A stretch of 47,991 nt of DNA from Gemmatimonadota bacterium (GCA_040905425.1 JBBDRO010000030.1:1-47991); one strand, 5' to 3'; positions 5,576 through 28,890 are shown, counted from the first letter of the stretch. Notes: generated by a model from the letters alone, not told the origin. Numbers and translations are program-made.

Positions 5576-5965
5576 ATGCACACAGTATACGTGGTCGAGG
5601 ACGATCCGCAGGTCCGCCTGATCGTGGCCCGGTTCCTGGAGCACCCCGACCTGAGCGTCACCACGTTCGCGAGCGCGGAGGCGGCGGCCAAGGCGCTGGA
5701 CGAGGCGCCCCCCGACGTGGCGCTGGTGGACGTGTCCCTGCCGCTGGCCTCGGGCGTGGACCTGCAGCAGTTCATCCAGGACATGGCGCCGGCCACGAAG
5801 ATCCTGCTCATGAGCGGGCACGGGCCGGAGTTCCTGGGCCATCAGGGGCTGCAGCCGGGGACGCCGTTCATACAGAAACCCTTCACGCGGGAGGACGTGC
5901 GCCGTGCGGTGCTGGCGCTGGCCGGGCAGGGGAGCGCGGAGGATCTGCCGCGCTTCAGCGGCTAG
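5576..5965 (+). CDS. Single-domain response regulator (receiver)
   Basis: VVEDD, LVDVSLP (phospho-Asp), MSG and FIQKPF motifs; GGAGG RBS. Confidence 0.88.
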   Translation: MHTVYVVEDDPQVRLIVARFLEHPDLSVTTFASAEAAAKALDEAPPDVALVDVSLPLASGVDLQQFIQDMAPATKILLMSGHGPEFLGHQGLQPGTPFIQKPFTREDVRRAVLALAGQGSAEDLPRFSG

Positions 5966-6617
5966 CGCCGCGCTCCTTCGACCCGCCGTTGCCGCGCACG
6001 CCGAGCGCGGCCCGCGCGGCGCGCGCCGCCTGCGCCAGCTCCGCGTCCCGGTCCCGCACGCGCAGGAGCGGATGGCCCGGATCCAGCTCCGCCGCCTCCC
6101 GCACGCAGTCTTCCACGATCCACGCCACCTCGCGCTGTTCGTACAGGTAGCCCGCCACGAGTGAGGCGCGCTGGCCCGGGGTGAGCGTGGCGGGGGAGAG
6201 GTCCTCGGATAGGGGTTCAGCGGGGGGCGCGGCCTCGTTGTCCCCAAGGAGCCGCGCCGTGCTCACGTAGGCGGTGCGGTGCGGCGCGGAGCGGAGCCAG
6301 GCCAGGAGCGCGGCCGCGTCGGTGGGGGCGGATACCCGCTCCACCACGCTCGCACTGCCGCCGCCGCCGGCCAGGTCCGCCAGCGCGGCGCACGCGAACA
6401 GGTGGCGCTGCCGGTCGGGGCCGGCCTCGTCCGACCAGGCGTCCGCCTGGGCCTCCCGCATCATCTCGCGCCACCACTCGGGCGCCACCCCCGGATGGCG
6501 GATAGCGCGGCCCATGCCGCCCGTCCGCTCGACGCGGCGGACCAGGTTGAGCGCGTCCGTGGCCAGGCTGCGCATGCGCGCGCCCGACGTGTTGCTGGTG
6601 TTCTCGTGCTCCGTCAT
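5955..6617 (-). CDS. Hypothetical protein
   Basis: 220-aa ORF with host-like codon usage filling the gap; no motif recognised. Confidence 0.6.
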   Translation of the reverse strand: MTEHENTSNTSGARMRSLATDALNLVRRVERTGGMGRAIRHPGVAPEWWREMMREAQADAWSDEAGPDRQRHLFACAALADLAGGGGSASVVERVSAPTDAAALLAWLRSAPHRTAYVSTARLLGDNEAAPPAEPLSEDLSPATLTPGQRASLVAGYLYEQREVAWIVEDCVREAAELDPGHPLLRVRDRDAELAQAARAARAALGVRGNGGSKERGASR

Positions 6618-6749
6618 ACCTGTGGACCGTTCGTGCGTGCATTGCCGTTGCCCGGCCTTCGGGCCATCGACCGCGACTGTCGTGGGGAGCGGGAAGCATA
6701 GCGCTTTGGGCCGCTACTCTCCAGCCCTGGATCTCTTTAGATTGCCATC

Positions 6750-7871
6750 ATGACCACCAGCACCCTTGCCGGCGGCGTGCCGACGAGCGCCTCCGACCGC
6801 TCCATCGCCGACTGGCGCACGGCCCTTCCCGAGGCACATCGCCGGCCGCTGCGTGCCTGGTTCTGGAGCATCGCCGCCATGACGCTGGGCGTGCTCATCA
6901 TCGGCGGCATCACACGTCTCACGCAGTCCGGGCTGAGCATCGTGGACTGGGATCCGCTCATGGGCGTCATCCCGCCGCTCGGTGACGCGCAGTGGCAGGA
7001 GGCCTTCGAGCGCTATCGCCAGTTCCCCGAATACCAGAAACTGCGCGAGGGGATGAGCCTGGGCCAGTTCAGGTTCATCTTCTTCTGGGAATATCTGCAC
7101 CGCCTCATGGCGCGCGCCATCGGCCTGGTCTTCCTGGTGCCGTTCGTGTTCTTGGCGCTGCGTGGCTGGCTGCGCAAGCCCCTCATGCTGCGCGCGCTCG
7201 GCCTCTTCGCGCTGGGCGCCATGCAGGGCGTGATGGGCTGGATCATGGTGGCCAGCGGGCTCGTGGACCGGCCGAGCGTGAGCCACTACCGCCTGGCCGC
7301 GCACCTCTCCCTGGCCTTCGTGATCTTCGGCTACGCGGTGTGGCTGGCGCGCGAGTTGAAGGTGGTAAGCGACTCGGCAACACTCCCTTCTTCCGCACTC
7401 CGGCTCCTGCGCCGGGGCCTGCTCCTGATGGGGGCGCTGCTCGGGTTGCAGGTCATCTGGGGGGCCTTCGTGGCGGGGCTCGATGCCGGCTTCTTCCACA
7501 ATACCTTTCCGCTGATGGCGGGGCGGTGGGTGCCCGCTGACCTGGCGCCCTACGATCCGGCCGTGGTGAACTTCCTGGTGCACCCCGTGGCCGTGCAGTG
7601 GACCCACCGGGTGCTGGGCACGCTGCTGACGCTCGCGGCGCTCGGCCTGGCCTGGTGGGCGCTCCGGGCCCCGTTGGACGCGCTATCCCGGCGTTACGCC
7701 GTGACGCTGGCCGGCCTCACGCTCGGGCAGTATCTGCTGGGCGTGGTGACGCTGTTGCTGGTGGTGCCGGTGCCTCTCGGCGTGGCCCATCAGGCGCTGG
7801 CCATGGTGCTCTTCGGCGTCTGGGTGATGTGGGTGCATCACGCGCGCGTTGCGTTAACTTCCCCGTCATGA
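6750..7871 (+). CDS. ctaA: Heme A synthase (COX15/CtaA)
   Basis: IGGITRLTQSGLSIVDW, EYLHR, RLAAHL, QWTHR and VAHQ conserved His motifs; about 8 TM helices. Confidence 0.93.
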   Translation: MTTSTLAGGVPTSASDRSIADWRTALPEAHRRPLRAWFWSIAAMTLGVLIIGGITRLTQSGLSIVDWDPLMGVIPPLGDAQWQEAFERYRQFPEYQKLREGMSLGQFRFIFFWEYLHRLMARAIGLVFLVPFVFLALRGWLRKPLMLRALGLFALGAMQGVMGWIMVASGLVDRPSVSHYRLAAHLSLAFVIFGYAVWLARELKVVSDSATLPSSALRLLRRGLLLMGALLGLQVIWGAFVAGLDAGFFHNTFPLMAGRWVPADLAPYDPAVVNFLVHPVAVQWTHRVLGTLLTLAALGLAWWALRAPLDALSRRYAVTLAGLTLGQYLLGVVTLLLVVPVPLGVAHQALAMVLFGVWVMWVHHARVALTSPS

Positions 7872-9817
7872 TTTCCGTATCCAATCTCGAGAAGTCCTTT
7901 GGCGACCGCGTGCTCTTCGCGGACGCCTCCTTCCAGCTGAACGCGGGCAGCCGCTACGGGCTCGTGGGCGCCAACGGGTCGGGCAAGACCACCCTGCTGT
8001 CCATCCTGAGCGGGCATCAGGAGGCCACCAGCGGGTCCGTGTCCATCCCCAAGAAGCTGCGCCTGGGCGTGCTCCGCCAGGACCAGTTCCTCTACGAGGA
8101 CCAGGAGATCCTGGGCGTGGCGCTGATGGGCAACCCGGAGCTCTGGCACGCCATGGTGGAGAAGGAGAAGCTGCTGGCCCGGGCGGATCAGGAGTTCGAC
8201 GCCGAGCGCTTCGGTGAGCTGGAGGACACGGTGCAGCGCCACGACGGCTACGCGGCCGAGGCGCGCGCGGCCATCATCCTGGAGGGGCTGGGGCTGCCCA
8301 CCGAGGTGCACCGGCAGCCGCTCTCCACGCTCTCGGGTGGCTTCAAGCTGCGCGTACTACTGGCGCAGGTGCTGGCCGGCTCGCCGGACGTTCTGCTCCT
8401 GGACGAGCCGACCAACCACCTGGACATCCTCTCCATCCGCTGGCTGGAGAAGTTCCTGGAGGACTTCCGCGGCCCGGCGGTGGTCATCTCCCACGACCAC
8501 CGCTTCCTGGACAACGTCTCCACCCACATCCTGGACGTGGATTACGCCACGGTGACGCTCTACACCGGCAACTACACCACCTTCGTGGAGCAGAAGAAGG
8601 CCGAGCGGGAGCGGCGCGAGAAGGAGATCGAGGGCCGCGAGAAGGAGATTGCGCACCACCAGCAGTTCGTGGACCGCTTCAAGGCCAAGAACACCAAGGC
8701 CCGCCAGGCGCAGAGCAAGGTGCGCATGATCGAGCGCATCGCGGAGGACCTGCACGAGCTGCCGGGCAGCTCGCGTCGCTACCCCAAGTTCCGCTTCAGC
8801 CAGCAGCGCCCGAGCGGCAAGGACGTGCTGGTCGTGCGGGACGTTGCCAAGGCCTACGGCGGCAACGAGGTGCTGCACGGCGTGGACCTGGACGTGCGGC
8901 GCGGGGACCGGCTCGTGATCATGGGGCCCAACGGCATCGGCAAGTCCACGCTGCTGAAGATTGCCATGGGCGTGGTGGAGGCGGACCGCGGCACGCTCAC
9001 CTGGGGGCACGAGACCCGGGCCGGCTACTTCGCGCAGGACCATCACGAGCAGCTCGAGGCCTCCGACCGTACGGCGGAGGAATGGCTATGGGACTTTGCG
9101 CCGGGCAAGGACCGCGGCTTCATCCGGGGCCAGATGGGCATGATGCTCTTCAGCGGGGACGACGGGGCCAAGAAGCTGTCCGCACTCTCGGGGGGCGAGG
9201 CCGCCCGCCTGGTCTTCAGCCGCATCATGCTGGAGCAGCCCAACGTGCTGGTGCTGGACGAGCCCACCAACCACCTCGACCTGGAGTCCATCGAGGCGCT
9301 GGTGGCCGGCCTGCAGAACTACGACGGCACGCTGGTCTTCGTCTCCCATGACCGCTGGTTCGTGAGCCAGCTGGCCACGCGCGTGGTGGAGATCAGCGCC
9401 GCCGGCATCCGGGACTACCAGGGCACCTACGAGGAGTACGTGCACGCCTGCGGGGACGACCACCTGGACGTGGACACGGTGGTGCTCAAGGCCACGCGCG
9501 AGCCGAGGAAGGAGCGCCGCAAGGAGCCCCCGGCCCGGGTCAAGCCCACGGGCAACGGGCGCGCGCGCAGTGGCGGCACCCTGGATCGCGGCAAGCTGGA
9601 GAGCCGGCGCGACGAGCTCACCGCGGAGATCGAGCGGGTCGAGGCGCGCGTGGCGGAGATCGACGCGGCATTCGCCCGCGCCGGGTTCTTCGAGGAGGCG
9701 GACCCCGACGAGATCGCGCGCCTCACCGCCGAGCGCACGGAGCTGCTCGGGCGCGTGGAGCACCTCATGGCCGAGTGGGAGAGCGCGGAGCGGGAGCTGG
9801 AGGCGGTGGGGTCGTGA
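7868..9817 (+). CDS. ABC-F family ATP-binding protein
   Basis: Two ABC domains ([23 protein letters not shown] and [22 protein letters not shown]), no TM segment, C-terminal coiled coil; ATGA overlap with ctaA. Confidence 0.93.
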
Positions 9818-9834
9818 GCGTGGCCGGAGCGCCC

Positions 9835-10869
9835 ATGGAAATCGGCCTCTACACCTTCGCGGAAACACGTCTGGATCCCACCACCGGCCGGCAGCTGGCC
9901 GCCGGTGAGCGCCTGCGCCACCTGCTCGAGGAGATGGAGGTGGCCGATCAGGTGGGGCTGGACGTCTTCGGCGTGGGGGAGCACCACCGCCCCGACTACG
10001 CCGTCTCGGCGCCCGCCGTGGTGCTGGCCGCCGGCGCGGCCCGGACCGAACGCATCCGCCTGACCAGCGCCGTCTCGGTGCTGAGTTCCGATGATCCGGT
10101 GCGCGTCTTCCAGGACTTTGCCACGCTGGACCTGCTGTCGGGCGGACGCGCGGAGATCATGGCCGGCCGCGGCTCCTTCACGGAATCCTTTCCGCTCTTC
10201 GGCCAGGACCTGGCCGACTACGACGAGCTGTTCGCCGAGAAGCTCGAGCTGCTCCTGAAGCTGCGCGAGGCGGAGCGCGTAACCTGGTCCGGCCGCCACC
10301 GCCCCGCCATCCAGGACCGGTTGGTGCTGCCGCGGCCGGAACAGCAGCCGCTGCCCGTCTGGCTGGCGGTGGGCGGGACGCCGCAGTCGGTGGTGCGCGC
10401 GGCCACGCTGGGGCTGCCCATGGCGCTGGCCATCATCGGCGGTGCGCCGGAGCGCTTCAAGCCGGTGGTGGAGCTCTACCGCGAGGCGGCCGCGCGCGCC
10501 GGCCACGACCCCGCCACCCTGCCGGTGAGCATCAACGCCCACGGCTTTCTGGCGGAGGACGCCGAGCGGGCGGCCGACATGGCCTTTCCGCCTTTCGCGG
10601 AGACCATGACGCGCATCGGCCGGGAGCGCGGCTGGCCGCCCACCACGCGCATGCAGTTCGACGCCGAGCGCACCCTGCGCGGCGCGCTCTTCGTGGGCGG
10701 CCCGCAGCAGGTCATCGACAAGATCCTCTACCAGCACGAGCTCTTCGGGCACCAACGCGTGCTCATCCAGCTCACGGTGGGCCCCATGCCGCACGCCGAC
10801 GTGCTGCGCGCCATCGAGCTGCTGGGCACGGAGGTGGCGCCGGTGGTGCGGCGGGAGACGGCCGCCTAG
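9835..10869 (+). CDS. LLM class (luciferase-like) flavin-dependent oxidoreductase
   Basis: [36 protein letters not shown] and [13 protein letters not shown] motifs. Confidence 0.9.
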
Positions 10870-10936
10870 CTCCTGAACGCGCGCGCGGGGCGGAGGCCGT
10901 CTGCGCCGACCCCACTACTTGCCGTGCGGAATGGCC

Positions 10937-11452
10937 TTACGGCGCCTGGCCTCTGGCCCCGCTCAGGTGCACGAGCGTGCCACCGTCCGGGGCCGTGGTG
11001 ATGAGCTCGATGGCGCCGGGCCGGGCGCGCACCGGCCCGGCGAAGGTGAGCGTGTCCCCCTCACCCACCGCGGGCGCGAAGTGGATCTCCACTTGGTGCT
11101 CGCCGGGCGGCAGCGCCCGCTCGCGCAACACGTAGACGGGCCGGTCCCCGCGCGCGCCCTCCGGCAGTACGAGCGCGCTGTCCGGCGCCCCGCCGTTCAC
11201 GCGCAGCACGAGCGTGTACTCGGTGCGGCGGCGCTGGCAGTCCTGCGGCGTGCGCATGTGCACCGGCAGGGCGTCCAGCTCCTGCTGCGTGCGCTGGCGG
11301 CACACCTCGGCTGGCTGCCCCACGTGCCGCCAGGAGAGGCGCAGGAGGCCCTGGTCGGCACCGGACGGGGTGTACGGCGCCCGGGAAAGCCAGCCCAGCG
11401 CCAGCAGCGCCAGCGCGCTCACGACCACGGCGAGCAGGTGGCGGAGCCTCAT
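10937..11452 (-). CDS. Exported/membrane-anchored hypothetical protein coupled to the cytochrome b fusion
   Basis: ATG 11452 overlaps the upstream stop (ATGA); N-terminal hydrophobic anchor; C-x(7)-ELDALPVHMR-x(4)-C motif. Confidence 0.75.
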   Translation of the reverse strand: MRLRHLLAVVVSALALLALGWLSRAPYTPSGADQGLLRLSWRHVGQPAEVCRQRTQQELDALPVHMRTPQDCQRRRTEYTLVLRVNGGAPDSALVLPEGARGDRPVYVLRERALPPGEHQVEIHFAPAVGEGDTLTFAGPVRARPGAIELITTAPDGGTLVHLSGARGQAP

Positions 11453-13017
11453 CCCGTCCTCTCCTTCAGCTCGGTGGTGGGCCCTGGCTTCACCCGGCGG
11501 CACAGCTCCAGCACGTCCACCCGCTCCTCCTCCGGTACGCTGGCCAGCGCCTCGATCTCCGCGCCGAAGGCCAGAGCGGCGTCGTGGAAGACGGCGCGCT
11601 CGCCCAGCGCGGCCTGCACGAGCCGCACGCGCCGCCGGTCCACGCGCGCCTTGAGGTCGGCCGGGCGGCCCTGGAAGAGCCGCTCCTCGGTCCACGTCAG
11701 ACCCTCCCGCGTGCGGCCGTCGTGCTCGGGGCAGCCCACCACCAGCACGCCGCCCGCGCCGCCGCGCAGGAGGAACTCCACGGTGGAGGAGTGCATGGCG
11801 CCCACGCACGGCACCGGCATGAAGCGGGCGCCGGTGCGCTCGGCCTCGTCGCGCGCCCCGCTCCACGCGCAGCCCACCACCACCACGTCCCGCTCGCCCG
11901 GCTCCTCCTCCGCCAGGAACTTGCGCACCTCGGCGATCTGCTCCCGCCCCGACACCGCCATGGCGCTGATGGACATGGGCGGGCAGGAGCCCACGCAGAT
12001 GCCGCAGCTCGTGCACAGCTCCGTCTGCACGCGCGCCACCTGGCCGACGCGCTCGCCCGCGCGCGCCACCATGTGGATGGCGTCGTAGGGGCAGTCATTG
12101 ACGCACTGCTCGCAGCCGGTGCACGTGCGCTCGTCCACGACGGCGGGCGCCGGCAGCTCCTCGGCGCGCGGCCGCGTGAGCCACGGCACGGCCACGAGCA
12201 GGCCGCCCAGCGCCAGGCCGGCCAGCCATACGCTCCAGGCCGGCAGCACCCGGGTAAACGGCAGCCAGAAGGCGAAGAACCAGTCCGTGGGGACGTTCTC
12301 CGGGAGGCGCAGGAGGTCGGCCTCCGGCGCCATGCCGATCGGCCAGAGCACGGCCAGCAGCAGCAGCGCGCCGAGCGTGCCCACCAGCACGGGGCGGGCG
12401 GGTAGCAGAACCGGCCGCGCCACGCGCGCCACGTGCACCCAGAGCAGGGCGCCCATGGCCGTGGGCAGGGCAATATGGGCAAAGAGGTTCAGGAAGAAGA
12501 AGCCATTCGGCAGGGCGCGCTCGCCCACGAAGGCGCGCCCGATGGGCTCGGCAAAGAGGGGCAGGGCGTCCAGCAGCCGGGCGCCCTCCACGGCCAGCAG
12601 CTGCGCGTGGTTGTCCCACACCAGCACGTAGCCGGTCCAGCCGCTCACGAAGATCACGGCCAGCAGCACGAGCCCGCTCACCCACGCCAGCGCGCGCGGT
12701 CCCCAGGTGCGGCGCTGGGCGTACAGCCGGAAGGCGTGCACGGCCGCGGCCACCACCGCGGCGTCGGAGGCAAAGCGGTGCACGCCGCGGATCCAGCGTC
12801 CGGACCAGCTCTGCGCCGTGATGGCGTCCACCGACGCGTAGGGCGCGCCGATGCGGTAGAAGAGCAGCAGGTAGAGGCCCGTGACGATGAGCACGCCGAG
12901 CAGCGCCACGGTGAGCGCCCCGCTGTGGTAGAGCGGGTTGGCGCGTGAGCCGAAGACGCGGTTGGCCGCCGCGTCCAGCCGGGCGAGGGCACGAAAACTG
13001 GCCCTGGGTTCCATCAT
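11449..13017 (-). CDS. Fusion: cytochrome b (bc-type) + 2x[4Fe-4S] ferredoxin + MvhD/FlpD-like domain
   Basis: RGVHRFASD...VHAFR and FAHIALP...WVHV heme-b His pairs; SGWTGYVLVWD; TDWFF at the PEWY position; CTGCEQCVNDCP and CTSCGICVGSCP; GC..., PCVG and GAGGVLVVGCPEHD MvhD-like motifs. Confidence 0.85.
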   Translation of the reverse strand: MMEPRASFRALARLDAAANRVFGSRANPLYHSGALTVALLGVLIVTGLYLLLFYRIGAPYASVDAITAQSWSGRWIRGVHRFASDAAVVAAAVHAFRLYAQRRTWGPRALAWVSGLVLLAVIFVSGWTGYVLVWDNHAQLLAVEGARLLDALPLFAEPIGRAFVGERALPNGFFFLNLFAHIALPTAMGALLWVHVARVARPVLLPARPVLVGTLGALLLLAVLWPIGMAPEADLLRLPENVPTDWFFAFWLPFTRVLPAWSVWLAGLALGGLLVAVPWLTRPRAEELPAPAVVDERTCTGCEQCVNDCPYDAIHMVARAGERVGQVARVQTELCTSCGICVGSCPPMSISAMAVSGREQIAEVRKFLAEEEPGERDVVVVGCAWSGARDEAERTGARFMPVPCVGAMHSSTVEFLLRGGAGGVLVVGCPEHDGRTREGLTWTEERLFQGRPADLKARVDRRRVRLVQAALGERAVFHDAALAFGAEIEALASVPEEERVDVLELCRRVKPGPTTELKERTG

Positions 13018-13043
13018 GCGCCGCCTGTCTCCCAACCGTTCAG

Positions 13044-13138
13044 GTAGGGGAATTCCCTACATAAAATCAGGATTTACCTCCCCAGGAAATCCTTGCTTTC
13101 TATACATCATATTCGCATGATTAATAGCAGAAAGCAAG
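13044..13138. promoter_or_regulatory. AT-rich divergent control region with palindromic operator-like sites
   Basis: GTAGGG-GAATT-CCCTAC (13044-13060); AGGATTT/AAATCCT pair; CTTGCTTTCT(13092-13101)/AGAAAGCAAG(13129-13138) inverted repeat; TTGCTT-N17-CATGAT sigma70-like promoter on the + strand. Confidence 0.6.
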
Positions 13139-13178
13139 CGGGACCGCCGCACCGTCCGAAACGCACCCTGGAGGCAGT

Positions 13179-13355
13179 ATGAGCAGCCAGCCGCACGCCG
13201 GCTCCCCACCCCTCGACGAGGAGATCCCCCTCGGGCAGCGCCTGTATGACAACTGGGCGCTACTGATGGTGGCGGGGATCCTGATCATGGCCGTGGTCTA
13301 CACCGGCTGGGGTCTGTGGGAAGTGATGACGCTGCCGCAGGGCACACTCCCATGA
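13179..13355 (+). CDS. Small single-TM subunit of the heme-copper oxidoreductase (58 aa)
   Basis: Below the ORF-track cutoff: MSSQPHAGSPPLDEEIPLGQRLYDNWALLMVAGILIMAVVYTGWGLWEVMTLPQGTLP; GGAGG RBS; TGA overlaps the ATG of subunit II. Confidence 0.8.
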   Translation: MSSQPHAGSPPLDEEIPLGQRLYDNWALLMVAGILIMAVVYTGWGLWEVMTLPQGTLP

Positions 13356-13966
13356 GCCAGGAGAATGACGTGAACAGGAAACCGTTCCACACCGGGCTGG
13401 TGGCGCCGCAGGGGCGCTGGTGGGTGCCGGCGCACAAGGCGGAGAAGGTCTGGTTCATCATTGCCTTCGCCTGGTGCATGGTGCTCTTTGCCATGATGCC
13501 GCTGTGGCACCTGAAGGGCGGTCAGAACCCCTCCGGCATCCGCAGCAAGGTGGAACCCGCGGCCTTCACGGCGCGCGTGGAGCAGATGGTGGCGGACTAC
13601 CAGGTGGGGGAGATGAACGGCTACCCCGTCGTGGAGCCGCCCGCCGGCAGTGACATCTACCTGCTCGGGCGCATGTGGAGCTGGTACCCCGTCCTGAAAC
13701 TGAAGAAGGGCGTGGAGTACACGCTCCATCTCTCCTCGGTGGACGTGAACCACGGCTTCTCCCTGTACCCCGTAAATGTAAACTTCCAGGTGGTCCCGGG
13801 CTACGACTACGGCCTGCGCATCGTGCCCACCGAGGCGGGTGAGTTCAGCGTGATCTGCAACGAATTCTGTGGCGTGGGCCACCACATGATGCTGGGCAAG
13901 GTGCTCGTCACCGAGGAGGATGGGACCATGCCCGGCGCCGCCGTAGCCACCGGGGAGGTGGAGTGA
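13352..13966 (+). CDS. Heme-copper oxidoreductase subunit II (CuA)
   Basis: One TM helix; DVNHGF and CNEFCGVGHHMM CuA ligands. Confidence 0.92.
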   Translation: MSQENDVNRKPFHTGLVAPQGRWWVPAHKAEKVWFIIAFAWCMVLFAMMPLWHLKGGQNPSGIRSKVEPAAFTARVEQMVADYQVGEMNGYPVVEPPAGSDIYLLGRMWSWYPVLKLKKGVEYTLHLSSVDVNHGFSLYPVNVNFQVVPGYDYGLRIVPTEAGEFSVICNEFCGVGHHMMLGKVLVTEEDGTMPGAAVATGEVE

Positions 13967-15726
13967 TGTCCGTGACCACGACCGATACGGGCGCGCCCGC
14001 GCCCGGCATGATGGACCGCCTCTACCGGACCTGCGGGGTCACGGGACTCCGGCTGCACCGGCAGGCGGAGCTGCTCATCAAGGCCAACGCGGTGGCCGCC
14101 ACCGTGGCGCTGCTCATCGGTGGCATCAGCGCCATCCTGATCCTGCTCACCCGCTGGCAGGCGGTCCACCTGCTGGACCAGGTGTGGTACTACCGTGTGC
14201 TCACGGGCCACGGCATCACCATGCTCATCTTCTACATCATCTTCTTCGAGATGGCGGTGCTCTACTTTGCCGCCGGACCGTTGCTCAACAGCCGCATTGC
14301 CGCACCCAAGCTGGGCTGGTTCAACTTTGCCCTGATGACGCTGGGCGCGGTGATGGTGGAGTGGATGATCTGGACGGGCAAGGCGGACGTGCTGCTGTCC
14401 TCCTACGTGCCCCTCAGGGCCGATCCGCTCTACTACCTGGGCATCATCTTCTTTGCGGTGGGCGCGCTGCTGGTGTGCGCGCAGTTCTTTGCCACGCTGG
14501 TGATCGCCAAGCGGGAGAAGACCTACGAGGGCTCCATGCCCCTGGTCACCTTCGGCGCCACGACCGCGGCCATCATCGCTGTCATCACGCTCCTGCACGG
14601 CGCGGCCACCTACATCCCCACCTTCCTGTGGTCCATCGGCCTCATCAACATGGACCCGCAGGTCTACCGCATGCTGTGGTGGGCGCTCGGCCACTCCTCG
14701 CAGCAGATCAACGTGGCCGCCATGGTGTCCATCTGGTACCTGCTGGGCGCGCTCACGGTGGGCGCGGTAGTGCTGAACGAGAAGATCAGCCGCACGGCCT
14801 TCGTGCTCTACATCCTCTTCATTTCCATGGCCTCCGCCCACCATCTGCTGGTGGACCCGGGCTTCAGCCCGGCATGGAAGGTGGTCAACACCAGCTACTT
14901 CATGTACATGGCGGTGCTGGCCAGCCTGCTGCACGGCTTCACGGTGCCGGCGGGCGTGGAGGTGGGCCAGCGGCTGCGGGGCGCCACGCAGGGCCTCTTC
15001 GGCTGGGTGAAGCGGGCGCCCTGGGGTGACCCGGGCTTCAGCTCCATGGTGCTCTCCCTGGTGGTCTTCGGCTTCGTGGGCGGCATCACGGGCGTGACCA
15101 TCGGCACGGAGCAGATCAACATCGTGGCGCACAACACGCTGCGTGTGCCGGGTCACTTCCACGCCACGGTGGTGAGCGGCACCACCATGGCCTTCATGGG
15201 CGCCACCTACTACCTGATTCCGCTCATCTTCCAGAAGAAGGTGGCCTTCTGGCGGCTGGCGCAGGTGCAGCCGTACCTGTTCGCCGGCGGCATGCTCATG
15301 TTCTCCATCTTCATGTCCCTGGCGGGCGGCTTCGGCGCGCCGCGGCGCCACTGGGACATCACCTTCTCCAACGCCCCCTTCACGGAGTCCTTCCACCCGG
15401 CGGTGGACATGCTGCTCGGCGGCATGGGCGTGGGTGGGCTCCTGGCCGGTGTGGGCGGCGGCATCTACATCCTGGTGACCGTCTGGTCCGTCTTCTTCGG
15501 TGAGCGCTTCACGGAGGCCGACCGGGTGCCCGGCGCCCGCGGTCTGCCGCAGGGCATCACCAGCCCGCCGCGGCCCGCCACGCTGGAGGATGAGGAGAAC
15601 CTGCCCACGGGCAGGTGGGGCAACGCGCCCGGTACCATGGCGCTGGTGCTGATCTTCCTGGCGGTGTTCATCGTCTACTACTTTGCCAACTGGAAGATCC
15701 TCTCCTTCGTGTGGAAGATCGGCTGA
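13966..15726 (+). CDS. Heme-copper oxidoreductase subunit I, eNOR-type (putative nitric oxide reductase)
   Basis: All six His present (LTGHG, GHSSQQ, SAHHLL, GHFH), but helix VI has Gln where O2 reductases have the cross-linked Tyr. Confidence 0.8.
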   Translation: MSVTTTDTGAPAPGMMDRLYRTCGVTGLRLHRQAELLIKANAVAATVALLIGGISAILILLTRWQAVHLLDQVWYYRVLTGHGITMLIFYIIFFEMAVLYFAAGPLLNSRIAAPKLGWFNFALMTLGAVMVEWMIWTGKADVLLSSYVPLRADPLYYLGIIFFAVGALLVCAQFFATLVIAKREKTYEGSMPLVTFGATTAAIIAVITLLHGAATYIPTFLWSIGLINMDPQVYRMLWWALGHSSQQINVAAMVSIWYLLGALTVGAVVLNEKISRTAFVLYILFISMASAHHLLVDPGFSPAWKVVNTSYFMYMAVLASLLHGFTVPAGVEVGQRLRGATQGLFGWVKRAPWGDPGFSSMVLSLVVFGFVGGITGVTIGTEQINIVAHNTLRVPGHFHATVVSGTTMAFMGATYYLIPLIFQKKVAFWRLAQVQPYLFAGGMLMFSIFMSLAGGFGAPRRHWDITFSNAPFTESFHPAVDMLLGGMGVGGLLAGVGGGIYILVTVWSVFFGERFTEADRVPGARGLPQGITSPPRPATLEDEENLPTGRWGNAPGTMALVLIFLAVFIVYYFANWKILSFVWKIG

Positions 15727-16631
15727 TGGAGGGGCCGCGCCCGTCCCTGGCCAGGGAGGAGATGCAGGCGCTCGGGGGGCTGGTGGCCATCCTGGCGGTC
15801 ACCGCCTCCTGGTGGGCGCTGGCGCTGTGGCCGGTGGGCGACGCGCCCGCGTGGCTGGCGCGCACCCGCTACGTCTGCTTCGGCGTGGCCGAGACGGGGC
15901 TGCCGGACGCCGCCGGCTGGGGCGGCCTCGTGGCGGGGCCGGGCGGCATGCTGGCCATCCTGCTGGTGGGCTTCTGGGGCGGCTTCCGGGGGCTGCTGGC
16001 GCGGGCGCGCTGGTCGGTCCCCACGCGGGGGGTGCTGGCCGCCCTGTTGCTGGGCTTCCTCCTGCTGCCGGGTGGCGCGGCCCTGCGGGTGTGGAGCGTA
16101 GCCGCGGCCACGGCGGCCGACAGCGCGGCGGGCGGACTGCCGCCGGAGAGCTATCCGCGCCTGGATCGGGCGGCGCCGCCGCTGGCGCTCACGGCCCACG
16201 ACGGCAGCACCTTCGGCTGGGAGCAAACGGCCGGCACGCCCACGCTGGTCACCTTTGCCTACGGGCACTGCGTGACGGTCTGCCCGGTGGTGGTCCACGA
16301 CGCGCTCGTGGCGCGGGAGCGGCTGGCGGCGGAGGGCGTCCGGGTAGCCGTCGTGGTGATCACGCTGGACCCCTGGCGGGACACGCCCACGCGGCTCCCG
16401 GACCTGGCCCGCAGCTGGGGGCTGCCCGCCGAGGGCGCCTGGCTGCTGGGCGGCTCGGTGGCCGAGGTCGAGGCCGCCCTGGACGCCTGGGAGGTGCCGC
16501 GCAGCCGCGAGCCCACCACCGGGATGATCACCCACCCCGCGCTCACCTACGTGGTGGACGGCTCCGGCCGGGTGATGTTCGCGGCGGCGGGGGGCGCGGA
16601 CGCGCTCACCGTTCTCGTGGGCCGGCTGTGA
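15726..16631 (+). CDS. SCO family copper chaperone with extended N-terminal membrane domain
   Basis: TFAYGHCVTVCP (CxxxC), ITLDPWRDTP, ITH; about three N-terminal TM segments; ATG overlaps the subunit I stop. Confidence 0.88.
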   Translation: MEGPRPSLAREEMQALGGLVAILAVTASWWALALWPVGDAPAWLARTRYVCFGVAETGLPDAAGWGGLVAGPGGMLAILLVGFWGGFRGLLARARWSVPTRGVLAALLLGFLLLPGGAALRVWSVAAATAADSAAGGLPPESYPRLDRAAPPLALTAHDGSTFGWEQTAGTPTLVTFAYGHCVTVCPVVVHDALVARERLAAEGVRVAVVVITLDPWRDTPTRLPDLARSWGLPAEGAWLLGGSVAEVEAALDAWEVPRSREPTTGMITHPALTYVVDGSGRVMFAAAGGADALTVLVGRL

Positions 16632-16640
16632 GCTGAGCGC

Positions 16641-17504
16641 ATGCATGTGGCGCGCGCCTTCCTGGAGCTAACCAAGCCGGGCATCACGGTGTTCATCGGG
16701 GCCAGCACGGCGTCGGGGTTTTTGCTGGCGCTCGGTGGCTGGGGTGAGCCGGGTCGCCTACTGCTGGTGCTGGTGGCCACCATGGCCATGTCCGGAGGCG
16801 CGGCGGCGCACAACCACCTGGCCGAGCGCGGCACCGACGCCCGCATGCGGCGCACCGCGGGGCGGCCGCTCCCGGCGGGCATCATCCGCGTGCGGGACGC
16901 CACGCTGTTCGCGTGGGGGCTGGGCGGCGCGGGCTTCCTGCTCGCGCTGCTGACGCTGCCCTGGCAGACCACGCTCTTCCTGGTGCTCTGCCACGTGAGC
17001 TACGTGAACGTCTACACGCCTCTCAAGCGACGTTCGCCGCTCAGCACCCTGGCCGGCGCCGTACCCGGCGCCCTCCCCGTCCTGGCCGGCGCCGCCGCCA
17101 CCGGCCTGCCGCTCAGCACCGGGAGCGTGGCCCTGGCGGCGGTGCTCTTCACCTGGCAGGTGCCGCACTTCCTCTCGCTGGCGTGGCTGGCGCGGGAGGA
17201 CTACGCGCGGGCCGGGCAGCCCATGCTGGGCGTCCTGGACCCCGGCGGCAGCATGAGTGCGCGGGTGTCCTTGCTCTACGCCGCGGCCATGCCCGCCTTT
17301 GCCCTGGCCGCGGGCTGGGGCTCGGCGGCGGGCGGGGTGTTCACCGCGGGCGCCGTGCTGTGCGGCGGGGCCTACCTGGTGGCGGCCGCCCGCTTCGTGC
17401 GCGTGCCCGGCCGGCCCACGGCCCGCACGCTCTTCCTGGCCTCGCTGCTGGTGCTTCCCCTGCTCCTGGCCACGCTCGCCGCCGACCTGGTTCTGTCCAT
17501 CTGA
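16641..17504 (+). CDS. ctaB: Protoheme IX farnesyltransferase (heme O synthase)
   Basis: LTKPGI, DARMRRTAGRPLPAG, YTPLKR, GAVPGALP and WQVPHF motifs. Confidence 0.92.
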   Translation: MHVARAFLELTKPGITVFIGASTASGFLLALGGWGEPGRLLLVLVATMAMSGGAAAHNHLAERGTDARMRRTAGRPLPAGIIRVRDATLFAWGLGGAGFLLALLTLPWQTTLFLVLCHVSYVNVYTPLKRRSPLSTLAGAVPGALPVLAGAAATGLPLSTGSVALAAVLFTWQVPHFLSLAWLAREDYARAGQPMLGVLDPGGSMSARVSLLYAAAMPAFALAAGWGSAAGGVFTAGAVLCGGAYLVAAARFVRVPGRPTARTLFLASLLVLPLLLATLAADLVLSI

Positions 17505-24694: not shown

Positions 24695-26875
24695 CTACCC
24701 CCAACTCAGATCCACCTTCGACAGCGGCAGCTCCCGCACCCGGTGCCCCGTGGCCGCGAAGATGGCGTTGGTCAGCGCGGGGATGGCCGGCGGCAGCGCC
24801 GGCTCGCCCAGCCCCGTGGGGGAATTGTCCGTGATGCGGAAGAACACCTCCACGGGCGCCGCCTGCGTGAGGCGCAGGAGCGGGTAGTCGTGGAAGTTGC
24901 TCTGCGCCACGCGGCCGCGCTCGATGGTGATCTCCTGGCCCAGAGCGTGGGAGATGCCCTCCAGCACCGCGCCCTGCGCCTGGTGCTCGGCGTTCAGCGG
25001 GTTGATGATCTGGCTGCCCACGTCCCCGGCCACCCAGGCGCGGTCCACGCCCACCTCCCCCGCCTGGCTCACCGTGGCCTGCACCACCACCGCGAAGTAG
25101 CCGCGGTGGCTGTAGTGGAAGGCCACGCCCATGCCGGTGCCGCGGGGTAGCGCCGCGCGGTCGGCCCAGCCGCTCCGCTCCGCCACCATGCGCAGCACAC
25201 CGGCCATGCGCTCGGCGTCCAGCCCCTGCTCCTCACCCGTCTTCGCCAGCAGGTCCAGGCGGAACTGTACCGGGTCGGCGTCCGCCGCCACGGCCAGCTC
25301 GTCGATGAACGACTGCATGACGAAGCACAGCGCGTTGCTCCCTGGCGCGCGCATGGCGCCCGTGGGCACGCCGATGGGAATGACGGAGGTCTCCGTCCGG
25401 AAGGCGGGCACGAAGCCACCCGGGAACTCGCGGCCGCTCATGGTGGAGCTGGGTGCCGACCGCTCGCCGTGCGCGTAGGAGACGAAGTGGTCGTGCCAGG
25501 CCGTCAGCTCGCCCGCCTCGTTCAGCCCGCCGCGCAGGAAGTGGAAGCCGCCCGGCCGGTAGTGGTCGTGGCGGATGTCATCCTCGCGCGTCCACACCAG
25601 CTTCACCGGCGCGTCCACCTCACGGGCGATGCGCGCCGCCTCCACCATGTAGTCGTTGGAGAGGCGCCGCCCGAAGCCGCCGCCGCAGCGCAGCAGGTGG
25701 ATGGTGACCTGCTCCGCATCCACGCCCAGGGTGCCGGTCACCAGCCGCATGCCGCTGTCCGGCGTCTGCGTGGGCGCCCAGATCTCCAGCCGGTCCCCCT
25801 GCCAGTGCGCCGTGCAGTTCTGCGGCTCCAGGGGGGCGTGCGACAGGAACGGATACGCGTAGGCGGCCTCCACGGTCTGCGCTGCACGGGCCAGCGCGGC
25901 GGCCGCGTCCCCGTCGGCGCGGATCTCCCGCTGCCCCGGCCCGGCGGCCAGCCGCTCCGCTTCCGCCGCGAAACCGGCGCTGCTGTGGTCGGCCATGGCC
26001 CCCTCGTCCCACACCACCTCCAGCACGTCGCGCCGCGCCTTCTGGGCGGCCCACCAGTTGCCCGCCACGATGGCCACGCCGGACATGAGGCCGCGCAGGT
26101 CGTCCCCGCCCTCCACCACGAAGGCGTGCCGCACGCCGTCGGCGGCGCGCACGGCGTCCAGGTTGGCGCTCACCACCGTGCCGCCGAAGACCGGGCACTT
26201 CTGGAAGACCGCGTAGAGCATCCCGGGCAGGGTGAAGTCGATGCCGAAGATGGGCGCCCCGGTGACGATGTCCCGGTTGGCCACGTTCCTGACCGGCGTG
26301 CCGATGATGGTGAACTCGTCGGCGCTCTTGAGCGGCACACTGTCCAGCTCGGGCGCCGGTACGGCGGCGGCCGCCTCGGTCAGCTCCCCGTACCGGAGCG
26401 AGCGCCCGCTGGCGCGATGCAGCACGCGGCCCGCCTCGGTCTCGACCTGGTCAAGCGGCACGCCCCACTGCTCGGCGGCCGCGGTGCGCAGCATCAGGCG
26501 CGCGGCCGCGCCCACCCGCCGCATGGGCTCCCAGTTCTGCGGCGTGGCATTGCTGCCGCCCGCGAATTGTCCGTCGAAGCGGCTGTCCAGCCCCGCCTGT
26601 TCCACCGTCACCGACGCCCATGGCACGTCCAGCTCGTCGGCGATGAGCATGGGGAGCATGGTCTGCACACCCTGCCCGATCTCCGGGTTCTTGGCGATGA
26701 TCGTGACGAGATCATCGGGCGTGATGCGGATGAAGGCGTTGGGCTCGAAGTCCACGAGGGAGTCGGCCGCGAGGACGTCGCTTGAAAAGGGCAGGCGGGT
26801 GCCGAGCAGCATGCCACCACCGGCCAGGGCGGTGACGCGCAGGAAGCTTCTCCGGGTGACGGTGGCGGGGCTCAT
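24695..26875 (-). CDS. iorB: Xanthine dehydrogenase family molybdopterin-binding subunit (isoquinoline 1-oxidoreductase beta-like)
   Basis: Tat-like TRRSFL; EIGQG, GGGFGRR, MRAPG and GLGEP motifs. Confidence 0.9.
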
Positions 26876-27411
26876 CGGGCCACCTCCTCACCCCGTCCAT
26901 TGGTAAGCGACGACGCCGCGCCAGCGCTCGCGTCTCCTCCTCCACGCGCCGGCTCCGCCGCGCTCCCCGCGGCCCGATGGATGGCGGCGCGGATGCGCAG
27001 GTAGGTGGCGCAGCGGCACAGGTTGCCGTTCATGGCCGCGTCGATGTCCGCGTCCGTGGGACGCGGTGTGCGCTCCAGGAGCGCGGCGGCCGACATGAGC
27101 TGGCCTGCCTGGCAGTAACCGCACTGTGGCACGTCCAGCTCCTCCCAGGCGCGCTGCAGCGCGTGCGACGCGTCGGGTGAGAGGCCCTCGACGGTGCGCA
27201 CCTCGGCGCCCGCCACGGCGGAGGCGGGCAGCACGCACGAGCGGGTGGCGGCGCCGTTCAGCTGCACCGTGCACGCGCCGCACTGCGCCATGCCGCAGCC
27301 GAACTTGGTGCCCTTGAGATCCAGGATGTCCCGCAGCACCCAGAGCAGGGGCATGTCGGGAGCCACGTCGACCGTGTGGCGGGTGCCGTTGACCGTGAGG
27401 GTAAGCATCAT
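26872..27411 (-). CDS. iorA: (2Fe-2S)-binding subunit (isoquinoline 1-oxidoreductase alpha-like)
   Basis: [24 protein letters not shown] and NLCRCATY motifs; overlaps the iorB start. Confidence 0.92.
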
Positions 27412-27451
27412 GGTGTGCCGCTCCGCGGGAGGACGGAAAGGAGGATGGTCT

Positions 27452-27480
27452 ATTGTCGGGCGCGGGAGGCTCGGGGTCAA
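27452..27480 (-). promoter_or_regulatory. Putative sigma70 promoter of iorAB
   Basis: TTGACC-N17-GACAAT on the minus strand. Confidence 0.55.
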
Positions 27481-28188: not shown

Positions 28189-28890
28189 CTACTGTCGCAG
28201 CACGCGCATGATCCAGTAGAGGTCGATGCTGCGCTCCGGATGCCGGGCCGCGGCCGTGTGCGCGTCCATCTCCAGACCGAGCGCCAGGTTCTCCTGCCGG
28301 ATGGCACCCGCCCCGTCCGGCACAGCCGGCAGCGCCGGCGCCGGCTCGATCTCCCAGCCGGAAGGGTGATAGAAGCGGAAGCCGGTCTGCCCGTCTCCCG
28401 CCATGCGGAAGCCGCCCTCGTGCAGCGCGCGGTGATGGCGCCGGCAGAGCAGCACCAGGTTGTCCAGCTTCGTCTCCCCGCCGTCCGCCCAATGAATGAC
28501 GTGATGCGCGTTGCAGAAGCGGTTGCCGCAACCCGGGAAGCGGCACCCCCGGTCCCGCCACGCCACCGCCCGGCGGATGGCCGGCGGCACCACGCGGGTG
28601 CGACGGCCCACGTTCAGCACCCTGCCCTCCGCGTCATGCAGCATGAGGAGGGCCGAGGCGTCGCACGCCAGGCGGCGCGCCGTCTCCGGCGGAATGCGGC
28701 CGCTGCCCGCCAGCACCACGTCACCGGCGCCGGGGGCGGCCAGGAAGCGGGCGGGCTCGGGCGCCGCGCCGGGTTCAGCCGCCGCCCCAGGCTCCGCCGC
28801 CGCTCCAGCATCCGGAGATGCGCCGGATGGGGCGCTCGCGGCCGCCTCGGTGAGGAGGCCGTCCAGGACCACCACGTGGAAGTGGAGCAG
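28189..28890 (-). pseudogene. 5'-truncated DUF222/HNH endonuclease
   Basis: ETARRLACDA, GRRTR, RDRGCRFPGC, HHVIHWADGGETKLDNLVLLCRRHH motifs; N-terminal part of DUF222 and an RBS are missing. Confidence 0.8.

Follow-up and report, generated by a model that had tools for sequence, protein, structure and literature searches.

A split cytochrome b/ferredoxin/MvhD-like protein encoded divergently from an eNOR-type haem-copper enzyme in Gemmatimonadota

The 47,991-nucleotide stretch of Gemmatimonadota DNA analysed here (GCA_040905425.1, JBBDRO010000030.1; 48 kb, G+C ~70%, hereafter called the window) carries, between positions 10937 and 17504, two sets of genes that diverge from a common control region. 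The best matches to the window's proteins point to a Longimicrobiales-type member of the phylum. The minus-strand set consists of two genes, one encoding a protein in which a cytochrome b, a ferredoxin-type domain and an MvhD-like domain are fused (the fusion), the other encoding a small membrane-anchored protein (the partner). The plus-strand set is an operon for a small single-helix subunit, a CuA-bearing subunit II and subunit I of a haem-copper enzyme, the copper chaperone SCO and the haem O synthase CtaB. An earlier note, made by inspection of the sequence, had described this layout, with a cytochrome b, two [4Fe-4S] motifs and an MvhD-like domain encoded in a two-gene operon; it was confirmed by open reading frame (ORF) calling and by Pfam and NCBIfam profile scans of the window ORFs. 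ORFs of the window and of related loci were called with a program based on G+C content at third codon positions (GC3), which can miss genes. Current annotation gives the members of the pair names such as 'hydrogenase iron-sulfur subunit', 'ferredoxin' and 'hypothetical protein'.

A membrane redox protein encoded in two halves

Relatives of the fusion were collected among 1.84 billion representative proteins (417 at E<=1e-30), and per-residue conservation was computed over 136 family members. Related loci were gathered by scanning one genome per species with a 16-sequence alignment; the sample comprises the best 80 of at least 497 loci, nearly all from Gemmatimonadota metagenome-assembled genomes (MAGs), together with four labelled Deltaproteobacteria or Myxococcota and one Candidatus Schekmanbacteria. 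The presence of each window protein in these 80 loci was scored by tblastn. The fusion was modelled with AlphaFold2 from 42 sequences, and structures were compared with Foldseek.

The fusion (11452..13035, minus strand) is 528 residues long when read from its longest ORF; an ATG at 13017, corresponding to residue 7, is an alternative start and is the one used in the stored protein P0001 and in the Atlas record. Pfam, sequence matches in the PDB (b6, bc1 cytochrome b, HdrA and MvhD), the AlphaFold2 model and Foldseek together delineate a di-haem cytochrome b (residues ~1-290), a 2x[4Fe-4S] domain (~298-353) and an MvhD/FlpD-like domain (~380-500). The model (mean predicted local distance difference test score, pLDDT, 84.6; predicted template-modelling score 0.82) contains six long helices, spanning residues 38-58, 76-106, 113-139, 177-205, 214-230 and 266-286, which are followed by two soluble domains.

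The cytochrome b domain (12166..13035, minus strand) is matched by Cytochrome_B (PF00033) over residues 32-203 (1.5e-15), and its first ~290 residues superpose on bc1 cytochrome b in Foldseek. Mitochondrial cytochrome b can be aligned with the family profile over residues 19-314, and b6 is matched at 3.7e-39. The four putative haem ligands, H86, H100, H187 and H201, are histidines in 136/136 members, as is characteristic of di-haem cytochromes b, and the alignment to b6 agrees with this assignment. A profile restricted to residues 205-300 finds subunit IV of the b6f complex as its best PDB match (E 1.6e-3), with the sequence T-D-W-F of the fusion aligned with P-E-W-Y and the Asp lying on the Glu; this residue, D251, is kept in 128 of the 136 members while the other positions of the motif vary. 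A haem cn of the kind found in b6f was considered and rejected, the position of Cys35 being occupied by His in the window protein and being variable across the family.

The ferredoxin-type dicluster domain (11977..12144, minus strand) contains two Fer4 motifs (Pfam, residues 298-353), whose eight cysteines (C305, C308, C311, C315 and C341, C344, C347, C351) are each present in at least 135 of the 136 members. The MvhD/FlpD-like domain (11536..11898, minus strand) is matched by FlpD (PF02662) over residues 401-497 (1.9e-9; 38 bits against a cutoff of 22.3), which identifies the FlpD fold, and a profile of the region matches MvhD chains at 1.1e-9. The two domains also align as a block with the NCBIfam model HdrA2 (NF040770), residues 293-499 corresponding to model positions 567-773 (2e-18). 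All four cysteine positions that the family has in the MvhD-like domain are in register with the MvhD cysteines when its profile is compared with the PDB chains, and they are cysteines in 134, 134, 136 and 113 of the 136 members, respectively. The window protein keeps the first three (C389, C410 and C435) and differs from MvhD in having Gly at the fourth position (440), with a His at 438. Residues 435-440, the site of this change, are encoded at 11716-11731. Among 72 Gemmatimonadota-type sequences, position 440 is Cys in 68 and Gly in four (the window protein and three close relatives); position 438, counted separately, is Arg in 64 and His in four. It may be that His438 has taken over from the missing cysteine, the cluster then being held by three Cys and one His.

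In cytochromes b of known topology, helix F ends on the cytoplasmic side. Since the iron-sulfur domains of the fusion follow helix F, they are predicted to be cytoplasmic. Six helices that superpose on bc1 cytochrome b, invariant haem histidines and cytoplasmic iron-sulfur domains after helix F are consistent with the trans-membrane electron conduit postulated in the earlier note.

The second gene of the pair (10940..11452, minus strand) encodes the 171-residue partner, for which AlphaFold2 and homology to longer relatives of the fusion predict a membrane helix (residues 2-23) followed by an 11-strand periplasmic beta-sandwich. Its ATG overlaps the TGA of the fusion (ATGA, 11449-11452) and is preceded by a GGAGAGGA stretch, so that its translation can be regarded as coupled to that of the fusion. 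The partner is matched by no Pfam or NCBIfam family. Its model is confident (pLDDT 93.9), and Foldseek finds no PDB match to the fold at E<=1e-3. Identification of the partner as a Rieske protein, a cupredoxin or a PCuAC protein was rejected, as it matches none of these families and its best Foldseek relatives are generic immunoglobulin (Ig)-like and carbohydrate-binding-module folds with a TM score <=0.41. Five of its residues are invariant (R38, C51, M66, C72 and G99) and five nearly so (W41, R52, E58, H65 and R67).

The origin of the partner becomes apparent on comparison with the long forms of the fusion. The relatives listed include 135 that are no shorter than 480 residues; 109 of these measure 620-792 residues, and the partner, including its N-terminal hydrophobic helix, corresponds to the extra ~150 residues at the C-terminus of these long forms (phmmer, down to 1.5e-31). 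The partner domain is detectable at E<1e-3 in 89 of the 135 listed relatives, and the pattern Cys...Pro-x-His-Met-Arg...Cys is also present in the consensus of distant long forms. In the related loci, 77 contain both parts, which are encoded by split genes in 71 cases, the commonest junction being the 4-base overlap (22 loci); in the remaining six, a frame-walk meets no stop before the partner match, and these may be fused forms. In a structure search of the Atlas, proteins of the FlpD-only, Fer4-FlpD and cytochrome b-Fer4 types from Nitrospinota, Nitrospirota, Bacteroidota and Chloroflexota were seen to end in the partner fold; in Pseudomonadota the fold stands by itself. The points at which the four modules are separated thus differ between lineages, an indication that they work as one unit. 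Homology thus identifies the partner as the split-off membrane anchor and periplasmic beta-sandwich of the same protein family, and the two minus-strand genes each encode one half of a single conserved membrane redox protein. The 'exported partner' of the earlier note is accordingly the detached C-terminus of the fusion family, with its anchor and periplasmic domain, rather than an independent protein. The predicted anatomy of the whole is that of a two-haem membrane wire with three cytoplasmic iron-sulfur sites, a seventh helix and an anchored periplasmic domain displaying an invariant Cys...His-Met...Cys patch. Longer fused forms (>924 residues, for instance with FAD or NAD domains) were not found in the search, which is weak evidence.

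The protein so described combines features of several known systems. With the cytochromes of bc1 and b6f complexes it shares the sequence and fold of helices A-F, all four haem histidines, a helix E-F region resembling subunit IV and an acidic residue aligned with the PEWY Glu. It differs from them by the lack of helices G-H, by T-D-W-F in place of P-E-W-Y and by the addition of three cytoplasmic iron-sulfur clusters and of a novel anchored periplasmic beta-sandwich. With HdrA2 and the Mvh-Hdr complexes it shares the 2x[4Fe-4S]-MvhD tandem, but in the fusion this tandem is joined to a membrane cytochrome, and the HdrA flavin domain, HdrBC and hydrogenase genes are absent. Among curated models, ExtP (NF040969, 1.3e-25) gives the best match to the cytochrome b domain, which is not a member of that family (90.5 bits against a cutoff of 290). 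ExtP-type b6-like cytochromes, found in Geobacter-type quinol oxidoreductase clusters, function with no Rieske subunit; in NosR and NapH, which support periplasmic reductases, membrane helices are coupled to [4Fe-4S] clusters on the cytoplasmic side. These systems have multihaem c or flavin partners, which are absent from the window cluster.

The eNOR operon and its association with the pair

The first gene of the plus-strand operon (13179..13355) encodes the 58-residue small subunit; the ORF has GGAGG upstream, and homologues are present in 75/80 loci. The ORF of subunit II extends over 13316..13966, with a likely start at ATG 13352, which overlaps the TGA of the small subunit (ATGA, 13352-13355). 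It is matched by TIGR02866 (1.4e-12), and by COX2 (PF00116) at 20.9 bits, just below the cutoff of 22; the CuA ligand set (H146, C181, E183, C185, H189 and M192) is invariant in 42 sequences, as expected for a CuA-type subunit. Subunit I (13963..15726, 587 residues; PF00115, 3.3e-61) overlaps subunit II by GTGA (13963-13966). Its best PDB relative is subunit I of Thermus thermophilus ba3 (4e-43), which places it close to the B family, and the Gln of its GHSSQQ motif aligns with the Tyr that is cross-linked in ba3. In PMC8756737 (section 2.7.1), eNOR is recognised by the replacement of the cross-linked Tyr of the active site with Gln. The motif GH[S/A]SQQ occurs in 66 of the 70 subunit I homologues of the related loci. 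The neighbouring enzyme can be assigned, from these residues, to the eNOR type of haem-copper enzyme; reduction of nitric oxide (NO) by the eNOR family has been demonstrated in R. marinus (PMC11214002).

The operon continues with the SCO1/SenC copper chaperone (15615..16631, with a start at 15615, 15711 or 15723; PF02630, 7.6e-22), present in 62/80 loci, and with CtaB (16641..17504; TIGR01473, 6.2e-63, 213 bits against a cutoff of 210), present in 11/80. A haem A synthase gene, ctaA, lies outside this range on the plus strand (6741..7871; PF02628, 2.3e-99) and is found near the cluster in 8/80 loci; the window thus has two genes relevant to a haem A type of enzyme, ctaB within the operon and, 5 kb upstream of it, ctaA. 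PMC11214002 reports CtaA in many eNOR operons, and only SCO is mentioned for the ba3-a1 operon (PMC6431628).

Neither a Rieske protein nor a c-type cytochrome was found in the cluster. A Rieske-like motif (C-x-H...C-x-x-H) is absent from the called ORFs of the 48-kb window and of the 80 loci; CxxCH is likewise absent from the called window ORFs and appears in the 80 loci only as scattered, non-recurrent cases, with the proviso that the caller can miss genes. This agrees with the earlier note, which had pointed to the absence of both from the cluster. The locus therefore lacks the Rieske subunit and the cytochrome c1 or f that are found in bc1/b6f complexes, although a Rieske gene elsewhere in the genome is possible.

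How regularly the two operons occur together was assessed in the 80 related loci. By tblastn, the fusion was detected in 80, the partner in 77, the small subunit and subunit II in 75 each and subunit I in 70. The three loci in which no partner was detected are those whose sequence ends at or just after the fusion. The divergent layout could be evaluated in 76 loci, the remaining four holding less than 150 nt upstream, and in 75 of these 76 the fusion-partner pair is divergent to the eNOR operon. The loci devoid of eNOR genes are those four and a single evaluable one, L063 (Candidatus Schekmanbacteria MAG, 8687-12143), where genes for a regulator of the Crp/Fnr family and for a DUF2249 protein precede the pair and the upstream 10 kb contain no eNOR, on a contig that stops 0.4 kb past the partner. 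Recurrence in 75/80 related loci exceeds what would be expected by chance. Clustering of the 1,320 called proteins yields only six recurrent families, namely the fusion, the partner, the small subunit, subunit II, subunit I and SCO; the next commonest are DUF2249/ScdA_N (18 loci) and an enoyl-CoA hydratase family (13 loci). Hdr and Mvh genes are not among the recurrent neighbours, which speaks against a heterodisulfide reductase or hydrogenase partnership.

The association extends to a second arrangement. In a tblastn survey of 72,556 plasmids, the sole match to the fusion was on a plasmid of Defluviimonas (Alphaproteobacteria), where the small subunit, subunit II, subunit I (GHSSQQ), cyoE, SCO, the fusion, the partner and a hemerythrin are encoded, in this order, in one co-directional operon. 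The Defluviimonas proteins are 35-52% identical to those of the window (fusion 35%, partner 37%, small subunit 42%). A 2026 preprint also reports two cytochrome b/[Fe-S] proteins, possibly of the same family, as encoded in the eNOR operon of the betaproteobacterium Ferrigenium straubiae and present in its proteome (bioRxiv 10.64898/2026.01.22.701106). The tie to an HSSQQ-type enzyme claimed by the earlier note thus holds in 75 of the 76 evaluable loci in the divergent form and on the Defluviimonas plasmid as a single operon; the opposite outcome, a fusion occurring mostly without such enzymes, was not encountered among these 76 loci. Taken together, the data make it very probable that the fusion-partner pair is functionally linked to eNOR.

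Other genes recur near the pair less often. A DUF2249 protein with a ScdA_N/DUF542 domain is found in the 18 loci mentioned above and a hemerythrin in five loci as well as directly after the Defluviimonas partner; copper-handling genes are represented by CopD in five loci and DUF411 in seven.

The divergent control region

The two operons are separated by an AT-rich region with inverted repeats (13036..13178). Its length is 143 bp if the longest fusion ORF is taken and 161 bp if the fusion begins at its residue-7 ATG, the latter value matching the common control region of ~160 bp given in the earlier note. A scan of 10700-13500 for sigma-70 promoters and terminators returned no match. The region contains, at 13107..13120 (minus strand), the operator-like palindrome TCATGCGAATATGA, or ATCATGCGAATATGAT in its extended form, which has no second match in the 48-kb window and is flanked by perfect 10-nt inverted arms (13092-13101 and 13129-13138). 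A single match in the window is not significant by itself, at least one being obtained in 21 of 100 shuffles, and the weight of the palindrome therefore rests on its recurrence at the homologous place: of the 76 homologous intergenic regions, 47 contain the motif TCATGNNNATATGA upstream of the fusion with at most one mismatch, and in 34 of these the match is exact.

A candidate regulator for this site is suggested by the genes around it. In 58 of the 75 loci that have both operons, a gene of the Rrf2 family lies between them, on the eNOR strand. The motif C-x6/7-C-x5-C is present in 60/60 of the Rrf2 matches; this pattern marks iron-sulfur-binding Rrf2 regulators such as NsrR and IscR. The one example scanned reaches the cutoff of the superfamily model only (TIGR00738, 103 bits), the IscR and NsrR models scoring below theirs. 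I infer that ATCATGNNNATATGAT is a candidate Rrf2 target in the control region. No Rrf2 gene is found anywhere in the 48-kb window, though the palindrome is kept; the gene may lie outside the window, or a different factor may have taken over control. Overall, there is strong reason to conclude that a single control region, marked by a conserved palindrome, drives the pair in one direction and the eNOR operon in the other.

Further repeats were noted in the same region. Positions 13039-13104 hold an imperfect inverted repeat, TTCAGGTAGGG/CCCTACATAAA, containing GGGGAATTCCC, and a second imperfect repeat, an 18-nt pair around AGGATTT...AAATCCT. Another palindrome, which has perfect arms and the form T[TC]CC[CA]-N4-14-[TG]GG[GA]A, is present in 6 of the 18 intergenic regions that lack an Rrf2 gene and in none of the 58 that have one; the window has no match to it.

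The remaining annotated genes of the window are unrelated housekeeping and transport genes. The longest ORF of an ABC-F ATPase (7598-9817) runs ~270 bases into the end of ctaA, and its true start is probably further downstream. Positions 24698-27480 and 28192-28875 hold genes for a xanthine-dehydrogenase-family molybdoenzyme with its [2Fe-2S] subunit and, adjoining these, an HNH endonuclease/DUF222 gene, of a kind often found on mobile elements. Two minus-strand ORFs whose GC3 of 0.86-0.94 gives a strong coding signal (1-1704 and 5958-6617) match no Pfam family at E<=1e-5, the second of them matching no NCBIfam family either.

Possible roles of the pair

What might a split cytochrome b/iron-sulfur protein do for eNOR? 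I tentatively favour the hypothesis that the pair is eNOR's own electron-input module, supplying electrons for turnover rather than serving mainly in maturation, although I would give it slightly less than an even chance. Electrons would enter either from menaquinol, at a periplasmic Qo-like pocket that keeps the acidic residue of PEWY, or from a cytoplasmic one-electron donor by way of the three iron-sulfur clusters. They would cross the membrane through the two b haems. At the periplasmic face, the anchored beta-sandwich would stand topologically where a Rieske or cytochrome c1 head is otherwise found, and electrons would be handed on towards the CuA centre of subunit II, no cytochrome c or cupredoxin being needed in the cluster. 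Turnover supply is ranked first because the cluster encodes no donor to CuA (cytochrome c or cupredoxin), because the acidic residue of the putative quinol pocket is conserved and because the module appears to be replaceable elsewhere.

The last argument comes from eNOR clusters devoid of the module. When the plasmids were searched with subunit I, 12 replicons were retrieved at 46-51% identity, one from Defluviimonas, one from Thermomicrobium roseum and ten from Thermus thermophilus. Three of these loci, L081-L083, carry the motif GHGAQQ or GHSSQQ, and in both L082 (T. roseum plasmid NC_011961.1) and L083 (Thermus thermophilus plasmid NZ_AP025614.1) it is GHGAQQ, with the small subunit and subunit II upstream. 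Neither the fusion nor the partner was found within 12 kb of the L082 and L083 clusters in this survey of plasmids; the module may be chromosomal in these organisms. In L082 the cluster is followed by a gene for a 600-residue protein annotated as haem O synthase, which matches the window CtaB over 2-285 and CtaA weakly (1.4e-4). In L083 it is followed by Rrf2, DUF542 and cupin-like genes, and 4 kb away lie genes for a cytochrome c, a cytochrome P460 and a multicopper oxidase. The module is therefore lineage-specific rather than obligatory. An eNOR without the module and, in Thermus, with a cytochrome c nearby fits interchangeable donors, unlike obligatory assembly factors, and is counted here in favour of a donor role.

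A number of observations weigh against turnover supply. The beta-sandwich has no recognisable redox-cofactor motif or structural relative, so that the exit of electrons from the haem near the periplasm lacks an account; and the absence of a Rieske centre deprives the textbook Qo mechanism of its high-potential acceptor. With quinol as the donor, the three cytoplasmic iron-sulfur clusters are unexplained, and family clustering over the 80 loci shows no conserved cytoplasmic partner in the cluster. Purified R. marinus eNOR is active with artificial donors (PMC11214002). Of the 12 plasmid replicons with a close subunit I, 11 lack the module (two of these 11 were inspected for the Gln motif), and in Defluviimonas the pair follows cyoE and SCO and so stands among assembly genes. 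The linkage itself was scored in the best 80 of at least 497 loci, nearly all of one phylum and belonging to close relatives rather than to the distant long forms. Under every reading, moreover, the exit of electrons from the outer haem and the docking on the MvhD-like domain are left unexplained. Prediction of a complex between the cytochrome b domain, the partner, the CuA domain of subunit II and two haems gave scores of 0.11 and 0.01 against a mark of 0.32, and bears neither way on binding.

The main rival hypothesis, which I consider possible but clearly less probable, is that the pair is a maturation or maintenance factor that, like CcoG or NosR, would transfer reductant across the membrane, from cytoplasm to periplasm, for the preparation or repair of eNOR cofactors. 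Its tasks could be the reduction of Cu(II) to Cu(I) for assembly of CuA with SCO, the provision of Fe to the active site, or keeping the Cys ligands reduced, with the beta-sandwich handling the metal. The cytoplasmic iron-sulfur arm makes direct sense here as the point of electron entry, and C51, H65, M66 and C72 of the partner are typical soft-metal ligands. SCO belongs to the conserved core (62/80 loci), and the position of the Defluviimonas pair after cyoE and SCO, the CopD (5 loci) and DUF411 (7 loci) genes nearby and the failure to find a PCuAC-like gene among the recurrent families point in the same direction. The architecture, moreover, parallels that of CcoG (FixG), the cupric reductase of cbb3 assembly, which like the fusion is membrane-bound, has two [4Fe-4S] clusters and is encoded beside a haem-copper enzyme, and which bears a C-terminal periplasmic Ig-like domain; neither the role of that domain nor the physiological donor of CcoG is described as established (PMC7558416). 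The resemblance is an architectural analogy only, CcoG having neither a cytochrome b nor an MvhD domain: no Pfam or NCBIfam match relates the fusion or the partner to FixG or FixG_C, no PDB fold match was found for the partner, and no sequence homology to known copper chaperones was detected. The conserved acid at the PEWY position and the cd-loop region of the quinol pocket are not obviously needed by a bare wire, and in Gemmatimonadota the pair forms its own operon, apart from SCO and ctaB. The Thermus and Thermomicrobium eNOR clusters lack the module on the same replicon, which is unexpected of an assembly need specific to the family.

An improbable third hypothesis is that the pair forms a bifurcating complex, in which quinol would be oxidised at the Qo-like site, one electron passing to eNOR, with its very high potential, and the other being driven through the b haems and iron-sulfur clusters to a cytoplasmic acceptor of low potential, either ferredoxin or, by way of another enzyme, NAD(P)+. 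HdrA-type ferredoxin/MvhD domains serve flavin-based bifurcation enzymes, and anammox Rieske/cytochrome b complexes offer a proposed precedent. The fusion does combine a Qo-like motif, two haems and an HdrA-type ferredoxin/MvhD arm (HdrA2, 2e-18). In the preprint on Ferrigenium straubiae (Betaproteobacteria), the two genes of the eNOR operon for cytochrome b/[Fe-S] proteins, of which one additionally encodes FAD and NADH domains, are located with those for eNOR subunits II and I, haem O synthase and sco1, and their proteins were detected in the proteome (bioRxiv 10.64898/2026.01.22.701106). Its authors call the genes 'rather unusual', regard them as markers of Ferrigenium rather than as a widespread eNOR partner and suggest a quinol:NAD+ oxidoreductase supercomplex in which quinol:NAD+ oxidoreduction is coupled to NO reduction. 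These proteins are possible relatives of the window pair. Against the hypothesis, neither the window protein nor the conserved cluster has a flavin or NAD(P) domain, and the failure to find longer fused forms points, weakly, the same way. There is furthermore no Rieske-like first acceptor, the hosts appear heterotrophic, with no evident need for reverse electron flow, and the C440G/R438H ligand change of the window subclade hints at a higher rather than a lower potential.

A related and quite unlikely possibility is a Rieske-independent quinol oxidation, in which a Cys/His/Met metal site in the beta-sandwich would serve as a head of high potential from which one electron goes directly to CuA, the second travelling through the haems and iron-sulfur clusters to a low-potential cytoplasmic carrier. 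If this were true, NO respiration would conserve energy and also make a strong reductant.

That the pair is an independent quinone-linked or stress redox protein, sharing with eNOR only a neighbourhood and an NO- or iron-responsive Rrf2 regulon, is hardly probable: NO- and iron-stress genes do lie nearby (DUF2249/ScdA_N in 18 loci, hemerythrin in five and on the Defluviimonas plasmid) and the L063 pair stands beside a Crp/Fnr regulator and DUF2249 with no eNOR upstream, but in 75 of 76 evaluable loci the pair stays next to eNOR amid neighbours that otherwise vary, and this adjacency survives a change of gene order and of phylum, which is stronger than usual regulon sharing.

How much of this is new? 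The domain families, eNOR and dedicated cytochrome b modules for terminal reductases are already known. The earlier note had called the module undescribed; this has to be qualified, similar genes being mentioned for one genus in the Ferrigenium preprint (bioRxiv 10.64898/2026.01.22.701106), but the wider family, its adjacency to eNOR and the split C-terminus were not found in print. More precisely, literature searches returned no description of the cytochrome b-Fer4-MvhD-anchor-beta-sandwich protein as a widespread modular family, of its near-invariable adjacency to eNOR in Gemmatimonadota and an alphaproteobacterium, of the 'hypothetical' downstream gene as the fusion's own C-terminus, or of an Rrf2-type operator common to the pair and eNOR. 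Seven supplementary files of PMC11214002 contain no mention of an operon, a cytochrome b or a ferredoxin.

According to PMC11214002, eNOR is among the commonest NO reductases in environmental data, with 2,709 matches in IMG metagenomes (Table 1). The pair is the obvious candidate for the missing link between eNOR and the quinone pool or a cytoplasmic reductant. As an electron-input module, it would be a natural bc-type cytochrome b that works without a Rieske protein and would bear on the evolution of Qo-type sites; were it instead a maturation factor, it would represent a new class of trans-membrane metal reductase for haem-copper enzymes. The pair, the Rrf2 regulator and the palindrome improve the annotation of N2O-producing pathways in Gemmatimonadota and Proteobacteria.

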